NCBI GenBank assembly: GCA_951406725.2
Contig: OX597839.1
Location: forward strand, 9,610,001 to 9,674,000
Direction: 5' to 3'
From: Octopus vulgaris
Taxonomy: Eukaryota
Length of the DNA: 64,000 nt
Shown here: one piece after another, positions 1,349 through 64,000 of the stretch
Numbering within the stretch: position 1 is the stretch's first letter
How the letters are laid out: each line of letters starts with the position of its first letter
The notes under the pieces: generated by a model
Told to the model about the DNA's origin: nothing
Database searches by the model: none
What the model saw: only the letters and a program-made list of their open reading frames with translations
Translations under genes and position numbers: made by a program

Positions 1349-1468
1349 CTGGACATCCTTGAGTTCCTTTTCAAGACGCATTCGTTCAGCAGTTTCTTGC
1401 TCAAGCATTTCAGATGCATGGCTGGTGGTTGTTGCTTCCTCTGCGAGGTCAGCGTTTAATTCTGAGAG
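1349..1468 (-). CDS. MYO18A: Myosin-XVIII exon (proximal coiled coil), 40 codons LSELNADLAEEATTTSHASEMLEQETAERMRLEKELKDVQ
   Basis: Acceptor ttgttattgtAG and donor CAG|GTAATT, phase 0/0, 120 nt. Resembles vertebrate MYO18A ISELTSELTDE...ETAERLRAEKEMKELQ (recalled, not searched). Confidence 0.92.
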
Positions 1469-1661
1469 CTACAATAACAAAACAGCAACATGTTTTTAGC
1501 AACAATAAAATCCATGCAATACTGGCCATAAAAGCACCATATATCTACAAGGTCTAATAGTTTTATCACTAAGATATAATACAGTAGCGAGTGTGTGTAT
1601 AGGACATATATCGTAGGAGTTGCCAGGAGCATGTGTATGTGTGTACATAAGCACAACTTAC

Positions 1662-1751
1662 TCTGGAGTCAAGTCGGTCACAGTGTAACTTGTATTCGTT
1701 CTTCTCACGTTCAACTTTTTCAAACTTCACCTTCAGTTGTTCCAATTCAGC
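1662..1751 (-). CDS. MYO18A: Myosin-XVIII exon, 30 codons AELEQLKVKFEKVEREKNEYKLHCDRLDSR
   Basis: Acceptor gtatttcAG and donor AGA|GTAAGT, phase 0/0, 90 nt. Resembles MYO18A [30 protein letters not shown]. Confidence 0.92.
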
Positions 1752-3769: not shown

Positions 3770-4898
3770 TCCAGATGCATTTCCACTGTCCGAAGCACAT
3801 TCCAGATGCATTTTCCACTGTCCGAAGCACATTCCAGATGCATTTTCCACTGTCCGAAGCACATTCCAGATGCATTTTCCACTGTCCGAAGCACATTCCA
3901 GATGCATTTTCCACTATCCGAAGCCCATTCAAGATGCATTTTCCACTGTCTGAAGCACATTCCAGATGCATTTTCTGCTGTCTGAAGCACATTCCAGATG
4001 CATTTTCCACTGTCCAGATGCATTTTCCACTGTCTGAAGCACATTCAAGATGCATTTTCCACTGTCCGAAGGCACATTCCAGATGCATTTTCCACTGTCC
4101 GAAGCACATTCCAGATGCATTTTCCACTGTCCGAAGCACATTCCAAGATGCATTTTCCACTGTCCGAAGCACATTCCAGATGCATTTTCCACTGTCCGAA
4201 GCACATTCCAGATGCATTTTCCACTGTCCGAAGCACATTCCAGATGCATTTTCCACTGTCCGAAGCACATTCCAGATGCATTTTCCACTGTCCGAAGCAC
4301 ATTCCAGATGCATTTTCTACTGTCCGAAGCACATTCCAGATGCATTTTCCACTGTCCGAAGCACATTCCAGATGCATTTTCCACTGTCCGAAGCACATTC
4401 CAGATGCAGTTTCCACTGTCTGAAGCACATTCCAGATGCAGTTTCCACTGTCCGAAACACATTCCAGATGCATTTTCCACTGTCCGAAGCACATTCCAGA
4501 GGCATTTTCCACTGTCCGAAGCACATTCCAGATGCATTTTCCACTGTCCGAAGCACATTCCAGATGCATTTTCCACTGTCCGAAGCACATTCCAGATGCA
4601 TTTTCCACTGTCCGAAGCACATTCCAGATGCATTTTCCACTGTCCGAAGCACATTCCAGAGGCATTTTCCACTGTCCGAAGCACATTCCAGAGGCATTTT
4701 CCACTGTCCGAAGCACATTCCAGAGGCATTTTTCACTGTCCGAAGCACATTCCAGATGCATTTTCCACTGTCCGAATCACATTTTAGATGCATTTTCCAC
4801 TGTCCGAAGCACATTCCAGATGCATTTTCCACTGTCCGAAGCACATTCCAGATGCATTTTCCACTGTCCGAAGCACATTCCAGATGTATTTTCCACTG
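3770..4898. repeat. 32-bp minisatellite, ~35 copies (TTCCAGATGCATTTTCCACTGTCCGAAGCACA)
   Basis: Head-to-tail near-identical units with no spacers. Confidence 0.97.
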
Positions 4899-4899
4899 T

Positions 4900-5645: not shown

Positions 5646-5789
5646 CTCTTTATTTTTTAGTTCCTCCTCAGTTTTGTGGACATTAAGTAGAGGTTTGACC
5701 CGGACATACAATCGCCACCATGGCCAGTCTCGGATAAGCATGAATTTTCTCACATTCTTCTGTATACAGCTAATGGCTGTCTGTTGTAG
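5646..5789 (-). CDS. MYO18A: Myosin-XVIII neck exon, 48 codons LQQTAISCIQKNVRKFMLIRDWPWWRLYVRVKPLLNVHKTEEELKNKE
   Basis: Acceptor ttcattccAG and donor GAG|GTCAGT, 144 nt. Contains the WPWW..L...VKPLL head-rod junction of class II/XVIII myosins. Confidence 0.95.
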
Positions 5790-15922: not shown

Positions 15923-16851
15923 TTAGACAAAACATGTTGCAGTATTTGTTCCATCAAAGCAGTGTATCCAGGTAGGTGTAGGGGACTTGCCTGTACAAAG
16001 CTGACAATACCAAAAGGAAAGTAGCAGAAAACATTCCTCAGAAAGTACAAAGTGCTTACCAAGGAGGTTACTAAGGGTCATTCAACAACCGAATGGTACA
16101 AAGTAGCAAAGAAAGTAAACGCATCTCTGTCAGCTTCAATGATGAAGTATGCCAGTTGTTTAATCACCAGAACTACCTACAATTATTATATGCATGGTTG
16201 AGTATCCCAGAGACATACTCTTTACTCTTAACTCTTTTACTCGTTTCAGTCATGTGACTGTGGCCATGCTGGAGTACCACCTTTAGTCGAGCAAATCGAC
16301 CCCAGGACTTATTCTTTGTAAGCCTAGTACTTATTCTATCGGTCTCTTTTGCCAAACCGCTAAGCTACGGGGACGTAAACACCAGCATCGGTTGTCAAGT
16401 GATATTGGGGGGGGCACAAACATACACATACACACACACTATAATTGCCATTTGCTAATTATGATACATCCTGTAGAGATGAGGGTAATTTTAATAAATG
16501 GAGAATCTTTGTTGTATAATATTTGATATGCCAGTATTTTTCTATGTAATTCAAATATACACCACTGGCCTCTTTGGGTTATTTCCCTTAGCTCATGTAG
16601 CAAGACATCTGTTTCTGCCTCCCTGGTACCCGATCCCCTCCTCCAATGCCCCCTTCATTAGAGCAAGACACCTGTTTCTGTCTCGCTGTCACACTCTAAC
16701 CTTTCATCACAAGTTCCCCTCCTCAAATGTCCCTACCTCTCTCAAAATTCCTTATCTTGTGAGTTCCTTGGTGACTCTGCCAGTGCTGGTACCATGTAAA
16801 AGGCATCCAGTCCACACTGTAAAGTGGTTGGCATTTGGGAGGGCAGTTCAT

Positions 16852-17158
16852 TATGCAGATGACACTAGAGTTGCCATTGGTGCAATGGCAACTGAGTGCA
16901 TACATTGTAAAGCAAAGAAGTGGTCTGGAGAGACACCTGCACCGTGCTGCAGTGGTTGGAAGGTTAAACTCCATGCCATCCTCCAACCTCCAGAGCCATT
17001 GAAGAAACTGTTGTCATCAACTGACCAAGATTCCAAGCACTTCCAAAACAAAATTAGACAATACAACGCTGCACTACAGAAGACATCATTTGGAGCCACA
17101 AGAGATATAACTGAACCAGGATTCATGTAAACTTTCAAGATCCAAGGTCAGATCTATC
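16852..17158 (+). mobile_element. Helitron RepHel N-terminal fragment
   Basis: IGAM..ECIHCKAKKW..E....CCSG.KVKL....PPEPL..LL...SKHF...IRQYN..Q.TSFGA...[13 protein letters not shown] pattern characteristic of animal Helitrons. Confidence 0.85.
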
Positions 17159-17331
17159 TATCTATCTATCTATCTATCTACATCTATACATGTATATATA
17201 TTTATATGTATGTATATATATATATATATGTATATATATGCATACATATATACATGTATATATATATATATGTATACACACACACGTGTATATATATATG
17301 CATATATATATGTATACGCACAGACACACAC

Positions 17332-18097
17332 TGGATCACAGACTGGCAACTGAAACTGGCTGTGGACAAGTGTACCACCATGCATTTTGGGAGAAAAAAC
17401 CCTGCGTTCACATACTCCCTCCACAACACTGATATCAAGAAATCCTCTTGCGAGCGTGACCTAGGCATCACTGTCAGCAGTGATTTGCGTTGGTCAAAGC
17501 ATATCTCTAAGATTGTCAGGAAGGCCGAGGGTGTCTTGGCATCACTCAGCAGGTCTTTTGTTAGCCGCTCTCCAGCCATCTATTTAAAACTGTATACAGC
17601 TATGGTACGACCACACTTGGAATTCGCATCATCAGTTTGGAACCCCTATCTTGCACAGAACATTGACCTCCTGGAATCTGTCCAGAGACGTGCAACCAAA
17701 CGCATACCCTCCATCAGACACCTACCATATTCTGAGCGCCTTGTTTCCCTGGGCATGGATTCTCTGAAGCTCCGGCGTTTGGCGACGGACTTGGTAAACA
17801 CCCACAAAGTTATCAACCACCTCACCAACAACAACACTAAACACCTTTTTGATCTCCATGTGTCTAACACACGTGGACATGCCTACAAAGTCAGAAAACA
17901 ATACAGCTCCCATGACTTTCGGAAACATTTTTTCACGCTCAGAGTTGCTGAAGCATGGAATAAACTGCCTGCGTCAGTTGTTGACTGCCATGACACTGCA
18001 TCTTTTAAGGCCCTCATGCTTTCCGAAATCCGCCGAAACTTCACCTGATTATATATACACTTTAGATGAGTTGTAGTGCACCTGAGCACTGTACACA

Positions 18098-21595: not shown

Positions 21596-23115
21596 CTGGA
21601 CATATGTTGACCCTCACTTCACTTTCCACACATCTAGGTCACATAAAATGAAGCCCACATTCTATTCCCAACATATCTGAGTCATCATCATCATCACCAC
21701 AGATATAAGTGATGATAACATAAACCAGTAGGTGTGACATACTTGAAAGTAGTTATCTAGAAATATCAAAGCTCACAACTTTTATAATATAATTATTTAC
21801 TTTAAGGTTACCTCACCATCAGCACAACCACCATCACCATCACCACCACCACACTGTCACCATGACCATCATTACAAATATCAGAGCTTACTGTAAATAA
21901 TTACACTTCACAAGTTGTAAGGTTACCTCACTAACAACACCATAACCATCACCACCACCACCACTACCACCTTTAACACTCTGTTACTATTAACATTACT
22001 ACCACCAACTACACTATCACTACCGTAGCCATTATCATCTCTCCCATCACACTACTACAACCATCACCACCACACCGTCCTACCACTGTCACTAACACCA
22101 CATCACTATCATCACTACTACACCAGCATCACCATCATTTATACCCTCACCAGCATCACTCTCATTACATTAGCACTACCACCAAAGCATTAATATTAAC
22201 CACTCCATTGCAATGACCATCACCCAAAATATCAGAGCTTACAAGTTTAGTCAACATTATACAGTTACATTAAGGTCACCTCACTCTTATACTCTTACCG
22301 CCACCATCAACTACAACCCCCATGGCCCTCACTATCAACAATCAATGACAGAAGGAATCAGTGTTATTTATAAAATGATGAAAATAGCATTGAAGGGTGG
22401 CAATGTAAGCTTGTATATATGTATGTATATATCTAGGTATGTAAGTATGTATATATCTAGGTATGTATGTGAATCTAAGTGTGTAAAGGACATATGTAAT
22501 TAAAATCCCCCAAAGTGTCACATAGCATTAATTGACCCTACACACACACACATACAGAGGCCAGGGACACGGACACATTCTCCTGTACACACCGACAGTT
22601 AGCCAAAAACAAGAAGAGGGGAGAATTGACACTAATATTAAATTAGACAGAGCATCTACACAAGTGCACACACACACAATATGTATGAGTGTGTGTGTGT
22701 ATGTGTTGTGGAGTGGCTGTCTAGGGCATCTGCTTGATGTGTGTACGTGATGGGGTGAGATGCCTGACATACTTAACCCCAGTAAGATAACTGGGTAGAT
22801 TGTAAAGAAATGAGACCAAATATCTCATTTTCTGCAGCCGTTACTGCTATCTGGCCACTCCAACCGATCTATTGTTGTGTGAACCATGTTGTTGCTATTA
22901 CTGCTCCAGGGCAGCTGTTATCCAGGTGACCCACAGACCCGTTCTTCTGGTTATACTATATCTTGCTGATCTTACTGAGGAAGTATACTGCACACTTCAA
23001 TATGCTGGAGTGCACTGATGCATACAACTGAACTATGACAAAAAACAGCTGGTGTTGCAACAGCAGCAAAATGACAGATAACAGGGAATGTAGAGTTTGG
23101 TCTTGAAAACCTTAC

Positions 23116-23196
23116 TGAATGATAGTACCCCTTCTTCATAGCTTGATAAATGAAGTTGGGTTGGGGCTCTGCACCCGGTGGAGTCATTGCGGGTAT
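23116..23196 (-). CDS. Candidate alternative MYO18 exon (IPA)MTPPGAEPQPNFIYQAMKKGYYHS
   Basis: Strong donor TCA|GTAAGG in phase 0, ATG at 23187, in-frame ttttttaAG acceptor at 23198-23197, IQ-like YQAMKKGY. No transcript evidence. Confidence 0.45.
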
Positions 23197-23425
23197 CTTA
23201 AAAAATGATGGAGATCATACTTCTCCAGATGTGACCACAGCTGGTTTCTTCCAGAGAGATAGAGGAGGAGGAGGGGACAAAAAAGGAAGGATGGTGATAG
23301 AGAAGGGTACATAGAGGTAAAAGTGAGAGAGAAAGGAGAGAGAGAGAGAGAATGACAAAAATGAAGAGAGGATAACTGACTTATAAGGGGTCAACAAATA
23401 CCAGTCCCAGTGAGCTGGAATGTAT

Positions 23426-23632
23426 CTTTACTCTTTTTACTCTTTTACTTGTTTCAGTCATTTGACTGTGGCCATGCTGGAGCACCGCCTTTAATCGAGC
23501 AACTTGACCCCAGGACTTATTCTTTGTAAGCCCAGTACTTATTCTATCGGTCTCTTTTGCCGAACCGCTTAGTAACGGGGACATAAACACACCAGCATCG
23601 GTTGTCAAGCAATGCTAGGGGGACAAACACAG

Positions 23633-45023: not shown

Positions 45024-45152
45024 TCTTAGTTTTTCTAACTTCTTACGTCCTAGGTAACCACGGCAGCAGGCTTGGAATTTGGTAATTGTTCCTGTGATCT
45101 TCTCATCACGAGCCACTTCAAGGCTAGTAAGTGAACCAGCACGGAAGAAAAC
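45024..45152 (-). CDS. MYO18A: Myosin-XVIII exon (end of motor/converter + IQ), 43 codons [43 protein letters not shown]
   Basis: Acceptor tattacAG and donor AGA|GTAAGT, 129 nt. VFFRAG motif and IQ motif FQACCRGYL; joins in frame to the 5646-5789 exon. Confidence 0.95.
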
Positions 45153-63356: not shown

Positions 63357-64000
63357 TTTGAATGTATATATATATACATACACATCTACATATATTCAGT
63401 CAACAGCTGAAATCTAGAGGTGCTCAATTGAAAGTCTTTATTGAGGACTAGGTCCATGGAGTAAAGAGTGGTTATAAGAGAAATCTAGGTGAGTTGATAC
63501 GAGATAGTTATACAGATAAATACAATAAGGTTTTGATATATATAAATATACATACATATACACAGAGAGACAACTAAAAAATTCATCCTCAAACCCAACA
63601 AATTCATTTACGTGTGTGTGTGTGTGTGTGTGTAGTTGTAGACAGAGTAGTAAAAGTCAAACATTGAGGAAGGAAATTTATGTGGGGTTTGGTGTAGGGT
63701 TGCAACCATCCAACTGTTGCACCCTTGCACAAACTGAACAAGATAAACAGTAGAACGCATGACAGCAAGGAGCAGGGCAGGGTTTAAAAAGAAATATGAT
63801 AATACATACATTGAACTCTGAACCATGAAGCTGGGGTCCCATTTTATAGTGGGAACGTATAAGAAGCTGAGGAATATCAACAAATTTGTTGTTGTTGTTG
63901 TTGTTAGAGTTATCTTCATCATCACTGGCAGTAGTGATCCAACAGCGAAAGTTGTTGCATATAAAATCCTTGACAGAGTATTCCAGTGACAGAGATGTGT

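Follow-up and report, generated by a model that had tools for sequence, protein, structure and literature searches.

Organization of the myosin-18 locus

The window analysed here, a stretch of 64,000 nucleotides from Octopus vulgaris, falls within the octopus myosin-18 gene, which encodes a PDZ domain, a myosin head, an IQ neck and a coiled-coil tail, and whose exons match annotated myosin-XVIIIa (Table 1). The neck exon is 100% identical to P0001, the annotated unconventional myosin-XVIIIa of O. vulgaris, a match that is not independent since P0001 possibly derives from the same genome. Once P0001 was mapped onto the neighbouring stretches, the gene resolved into 28 exons across about 280 kb, with 27 introns of very uneven size: four exceed 30 kb (66.8, 66.7, 35.9 and 39.2 kb) and the other 23 are shorter than 7 kb. 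One extra exon of the O. bimaculoides model sits within the first of the long introns (66.8 kb), and the exon that carries the first IQ site (IQ1) is flanked by the last two, of 35.9 kb and 39.2 kb (39,234 nt). Downstream, the tail exons end just short of a 100-N assembly gap at about G000:C26:9591610 (L005). Neither the following 190 kb nor a search of the genome yielded another tail exon, the distal tail of scallop used as query gave no match in this genome (G000), and the distal myosin-18 tail seems to be absent from this assembly.

Several other features were recorded along the gene. Two long plus-strand frames at 17131-18048 and 16498-17130 are presumably a LINE reverse-transcriptase tail-like and a Helitron-like fragment, and a tandem array of a 32-nt unit occupies 4502-4899 (12.4 copies, 96% matches). 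In extended coordinates, which continue the numbering of the window beyond its end, a CpG-rich frame of 70 codons follows a 323-nt CT tract on the minus strand at 154568-154359 (G000:C26:9764359-9764568) and ends at a phase-0 TGG/GTTAGT in the 67-kb intron that precedes the motor exons. It is likely the first exon of a PDZ-less isoform.

Table 1. Positions of myosin-18 exons, candidate first exons and an adjacent repeat
Feature	Position	Strand	Remark
Coiled-coil exon of myosin-18	1349..1468	-	match to P0001
Coiled-coil exon of myosin-18, 3' end approximate	1656..1751	-	match to P0001
Neck exon of myosin-18 (IQ2 and start of coiled coil), acceptor 5789	5646..5789	-	match to P0001
Candidate 24-codon coding exon, from ATG to TCA/GTAAGG (donor in phase 0)	23116..23187	-	single copy in genome
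CT-rich leader: TCAGTT 23379-23374, upstream ATG 23218, candidate AAG acceptor (exon start 23196)	23188..23390	-	
Abundant interspersed repeat, directly upstream of candidate	23435..23620		summed depth 1e5-1e7, all four read sets
Exon of myosin-18 with converter end and IQ1 (starts VFFR), phase-0 acceptor	45024..45152	-	match to P0001
3' part of likely headless first exon, Ser/acidic-rich, CT-rich leader	63810..64000, ATG at extended coordinate 64463 (L010 position 463, beyond the window)	-	

A 218-codon frame in the intron preceding the IQ1 exon

Within the 35.9-kb intron preceding the IQ1 exon, a stop-free frame of 297 codons runs on the minus strand from extended coordinate 64571 to 63681 (L010:1-571 plus window positions 63681-64000). 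An ATG at 64463, with A at -3 and G at +4, opens 218 codons that end at the donor AAT/GTATGT at 63810, in phase 0, as is the acceptor at 45152. Over these 218 codons the sense frame holds no stop, against 6 to 19 in each of the other five frames, and not one of 20,000 shuffles of the stretch had any open frame (mean of 10.9 stops per frame). Both halves of the frame are single copy, and on inspection repeats seem to account for the remaining sense frames of 200 codons or more in 164 kb. The codon score stays near zero along the frame and goes down to -0.5 in the block that holds the donor. This likely internal exon is absent from both octopus protein models examined. In composition (18% Ser, 14% Asp/Glu) the predicted peptide is like the N-termini of the motor-less relatives described below, but with fewer basic residues; no alignment between the two was found, so that homology is by position and composition only. 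Taken together, these features make 64463-63810 the likely first exon of a motor-less myosin-18, its transcription and its splice from 63810 to 45152 being predicted from sequence.

Motor-less relatives of myosin-18

With the neck exon as query, HMMER returned 746 matches, and the best 150 of them were examined. Among these 150, 33 carry the IQ1 exon preceded by at least 100 residues, and Pfam places a Myosin_head in seven of the 33, a PDZ domain only in one and neither domain in 25. The unique N-terminus is joined at the (I/V)FFR start of the IQ1 exon in 24 of these 25 motor-less proteins, the exception being P0118. Three of the 25 are named insect models, namely P0079 (Schistocerca, isoform X3), P0124 (Bemisia), which clusters with Mhcl isoforms, and P0167 (Toxorhynchites, isoform X5). 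Of the remaining 22, 20 find their best named match in an arthropod protein, P0140 in a bivalve protein (55%) and P0173 in a lemur protein; no named mollusc protein occurs among the 25 from the best 150 of 746. Some of these motor-less relatives may be gene-model errors. Another 17 of the best 150 begin with the neck exon and continue into the tail, and none of their leaders exceeds 48 residues.

It should be kept in mind that clustering hides isoforms with short N-termini under longer representatives, so that their absence among the matches is weak evidence and the comparison favours long N-termini. Two further protein searches (16 and 20 matches) returned no motor-less mollusc form, P0008 beginning inside the motor, and in the clusters of 26 proteins no short neck-starting isoform occurs among the members listed (at most 15 for each cluster). 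A literature search, in which subscription papers were thinly covered, returned no study on motor-less myosin-18 in molluscs and nothing on cephalopod initiator motifs.

The original prediction suggested that a headless myosin-18 may arise from an internal promoter in the 39-kb intron. Its general idea is well supported, though most likely with another exon, 64463-63810 joined to 45152, as 24 of the 25 motor-less relatives found among the best 150 of 746 use the junction at the IQ1 exon and not that of the candidate in the 39-kb intron, which lies one exon further downstream.

The 72-nt candidate exon in the 39-kb intron

The elements on which that prediction was built are present as described. 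On the minus strand, the ATG at 23187 opens MTPPGAEPQPNFIYQAMKKGYYHS, which ends at 23116 before GTAAGG; the candidate donor is in phase 0 and keeps the frame of the neck exon, the acceptor of which is at 5789; an in-frame AAG stands 9 nt before the ATG, so that an exon using it would begin at 23196; and the CT-rich leader contains TCAGTT at 23379-23374. The coding part is single copy, and at about 23435, some 60 nt upstream of TCAGTT, an abundant repeat begins that we take to be SINE-like.

The donor, described earlier as strong, proved middling. TCA/GTAAGG fits five of the nine U1 consensus positions, none of them on the exon side, and when donors were scored with a generic matrix, 44 combinations of an ATG frame and a GT in the 39-kb intron reached at least its score, the candidate itself being the lowest of the 44. 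In the same intron, GTAAG follows an ATG frame of 10-100 codons seven times in sense and seven times in antisense orientation. Since genuine donors of myosin-18 without G at -1 do exist (AAC/GTAAGT and AGA/GTAAGT), TCA/GTAAGG may be regarded as usable, not as strong. The coding content of the 72 nt is equally unremarkable: a log-odds codon score trained on 618 myosin-18 codons amounts to -0.29, which is the intron median, 48% of 13,488 stop-free windows of the intron scoring at least as high, and 5,696 of 20,000 shuffles of the stretch stay open. A search with the 71-residue read-through frame of the candidate (five candidates) gave no match at E<=10, and the frame is not in the protein collection. 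CpG content was considered as an exon test and dropped because it is low both at the candidate (0.14) and at the upstream exon (0.25-0.33).

Nor could we substantiate an IQ-like motif in the 24-residue peptide. The Pfam IQ profile (PF00612; cut-off, 20.3 bits) gives the true IQ1 exon 22.8 bits and does not match the peptide at E<=10, in a test that is not very sensitive, as Pfam also misses the true IQ2 of the neck exon. Position 11 of the peptide is S where an IQ motif expects R, and a motif here would be spaced from IQ2 by 19 residues, with 26 being normal. The eight residues that resemble an IQ motif score 23, whereas the peptide matches three unrelated places in myosin-18 with scores of 28, 26 and 23. 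Within the 39-kb intron a score of 23 is reached by only 2 of 26,374 8-mers on the sense strand, which favours the motif, but also by 2 of 26,355 on the antisense strand and by 3 of 271 comparable frames. The likeness is treated here as chance.

Among 24 listed read sets, four contain part of 23050-23420. Reads from four read sets were compared at this site and showed no junction of the candidate exon, although the neighbouring repeat swamped the tables of joints and loose ends. X5 has no coverage from 22594 to 23407 and X1 none at the donor, gaps that weigh neither for nor against an exon. In X1, RNA-like by guess only, a single 195-nt contig of depth 2.8 covers 23162-23320, runs unspliced through the AAG and ends 46 nt before the donor at 23116; it is a weak hint of a first exon, and pre-mRNA or DNA would look alike. 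The same contig has G in place of A at -3 of the proposed acceptor, and both X1 and X4 lack one base at 23200, which shortens the T-run by one (single contigs, depths 2.8 and 6). This base decides the fate of the upstream ATG at 23218, which opens a six-codon frame in the present genome and in X1 and X4 shares the reading frame of the candidate. In X4, from organism C, the ATG, frame and donor of the candidate are all intact. Organism C is about 2% diverged and the comparison has no power to reveal constraint: one substitution in 72 nt (missense) stands against nine in 513 flanking nt (Fisher p=1), and no indel in the 72 nt against five in the 513 flanking nt (p=0.52).

Possible roles of the 72-nt stretch

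Two readings of the 72-nt stretch deserve serious consideration. The one we favour, to which we give an even chance, combines an internal start through 64463-63810, spliced to 45152, with a 72-nt stretch that is an intronic look-alike; by itself, the stretch at 23187-23116 is somewhat more likely than not to be ordinary intron sequence resembling an exon. The other, somewhat less probable than even on the strength of its supporting points and of the intron size, is that the gene genuinely uses these 72 nt as another internal first exon, with a promoter near 23377 and a shorter headless rod made beside the upstream form.

One argument for a real exon is the rarity of its layout. In control sequence of about 748 kb, taken from the plus strand and from the minus strand outside the myosin-18 gene, a CT tract followed by an ATG frame and a GTRAG donor occurs twice (threshold 50/60) or six times (48/60). 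This corresponds to a chance rate of 0.1-0.3 in every 39 kb, rising to about 0.6 when a looser donor set is allowed; the thresholds were, however, picked after the site had been seen. The 143-nt CT tract of the candidate resembles the leaders before the likely first exons at 64463 and 154568, and a 9-mer around TCAGTT, AAGTCAGTT, lies upstream of both the candidate ATG and the ATG at 64463, as much flank being shared by 6 of 295 TCAGTT sites. This 9-mer was likewise chosen with the site in view, it also occurs at four other sense sites without sign of a first exon, and GTCAGT is a donor-like word as well. The X1 contig spans leader and ATG without a splice at the AAG but does not reach the donor. 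In organism C the ATG, the frame and the donor are preserved, but the comparison gives no signal of constraint. The candidate further sits in one of only four myosin-18 introns above 30 kb, and bivalve myosin-18 models have short alternative N-termini of 19-35 residues ahead of the motor. Against an exon speak the intronic codon usage, the middling donor, the lack of a Pfam IQ match and the neck-starting relatives (17 of the best 150 of 746), whose short leaders are what intron read-through would give. Compared with the residues before the neck in the best 150 of 746 relatives, the candidate peptide scores at most 2.

Two side observations belong here. Over about 364 kb of the myosin-18 span, AAGTCAGTT occurs six times in sense and never in antisense orientation, and it is missing from 150 kb further downstream, a bias that is possibly due to chance. 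A search of octopus intron 2 with the short bivalve N-termini as queries yielded nothing credible.

Should both candidates be genuine, two nested internal promoters flanking the IQ1 exon would yield two headless rods, an arrangement that we regard as possible but doubtful. The longer rod would have a disordered N-terminus of 218 residues and both light-chain sites; the shorter one would begin with 24 residues of its own and carry just the second light-chain site (IQ2) before the tail.

Two further readings fare far worse. It is very unlikely that the site is a weak promoter or a non-coding exon and that its transcript gives rise to no stable myosin product: the CT-rich leader, TCAGTT and the X1 contig would suit it, as would the upstream ATG at 23218, which opens six codons in the present genome and joins the candidate frame in X1 and X4, but the reading depends on one low-depth contig. 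Least probable of all, and not supported here although it had been put forward originally, is the inclusion of 23196-23116 as an 81-nt cassette exon that would separate the IQ1 and neck exons and lengthen the lever arm by an extra IQ-like segment. The in-frame AAG behind a short T-run and the phase-0 donor would preserve the frame, but against this reading count the unspliced passage of X1 over an acceptor altered at -3, the T-run one base shorter in the single contigs of X1 and X4, the lack of a Pfam IQ match and the absence of any insert between IQ1 and neck in the 71 relatives with the canonical upstream exon (among the best 150 of 746).

A predicted motor-less myosin-18 and its significance

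Returning to the favoured reading, in which the upstream frame is the internal start, it is tempting to propose that a promoter inside the 35.9-kb intron starts a motor-less transcript, the donor at 63810 of which would be spliced to the acceptor at 45152. In the product, a disordered Ser/acidic N-terminus would precede the two light-chain sites and the coiled-coil tail; through this tail the protein would dimerise and co-assemble or join filaments, and it might act as a spacer, scaffold or dampener that lacks the PDZ domain and the actin-tethering head. Myosin-18 heads are described as being without ATPase activity (PMC3122231, PMC7900500), so that a headless form would lose a tether, not a motor.

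Myosin-18 is usually treated as a full-length pseudo-motor. The longer form would extend to cephalopods a little-described motor-less class, encountered here in arthropod, bivalve-like and vertebrate-like database proteins. If a widespread motor-less form with both IQ sites is true, tail antibodies and expression counts mix two proteins, and such a form would offer a natural test of the contribution of the head. The short exon, if real, would add a rarer form with one light-chain site.

Comparison with known systems

The closest parallel is Drosophila myosin-18 (Mhcl/CG31045), a member of the same family for which PMC3122231 describes shorter isoforms without PDZ or motor domain, that is, N-terminally truncated isoforms sharing the tail. 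In the account given there, these motor-less isoforms are genome-predicted, and the 5' RACE that it describes covers the PDZ and no-PDZ forms only. The insect models P0079, P0124 and P0167, with a low-complexity unique N-terminus joined at the FFR/IQ1 exon and with both IQ sites, have the layout predicted for 64463-63810, although their motor-less N-termini are longer (576-1164 residues) and do not align to the octopus frame. The 72-nt exon would be unlike these models in that it would join one exon later and keep IQ2 only. As motor-less myosin-18 has already been predicted in Drosophila and annotated in insects, the octopus form is likely a new case of a known kind.

The original prediction had likened the octopus product to catchin of molluscan muscle myosin II and to Drosophila myosin rod protein, which are products of class-2 muscle myosin genes (PMC3912159). 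Membership of that group was rejected, the octopus gene being of class 18 and not a class-2 muscle myosin. According to the same source, myosin rod protein begins after the light-chain-binding domains, whereas the octopus products would keep one or two IQ sites. Finally, mammalian Myo18A is described in alpha, beta and gamma forms (PMC11112018), the beta and gamma forms of which have alternative N-termini, as proposed for octopus, but keep the motor-like head.
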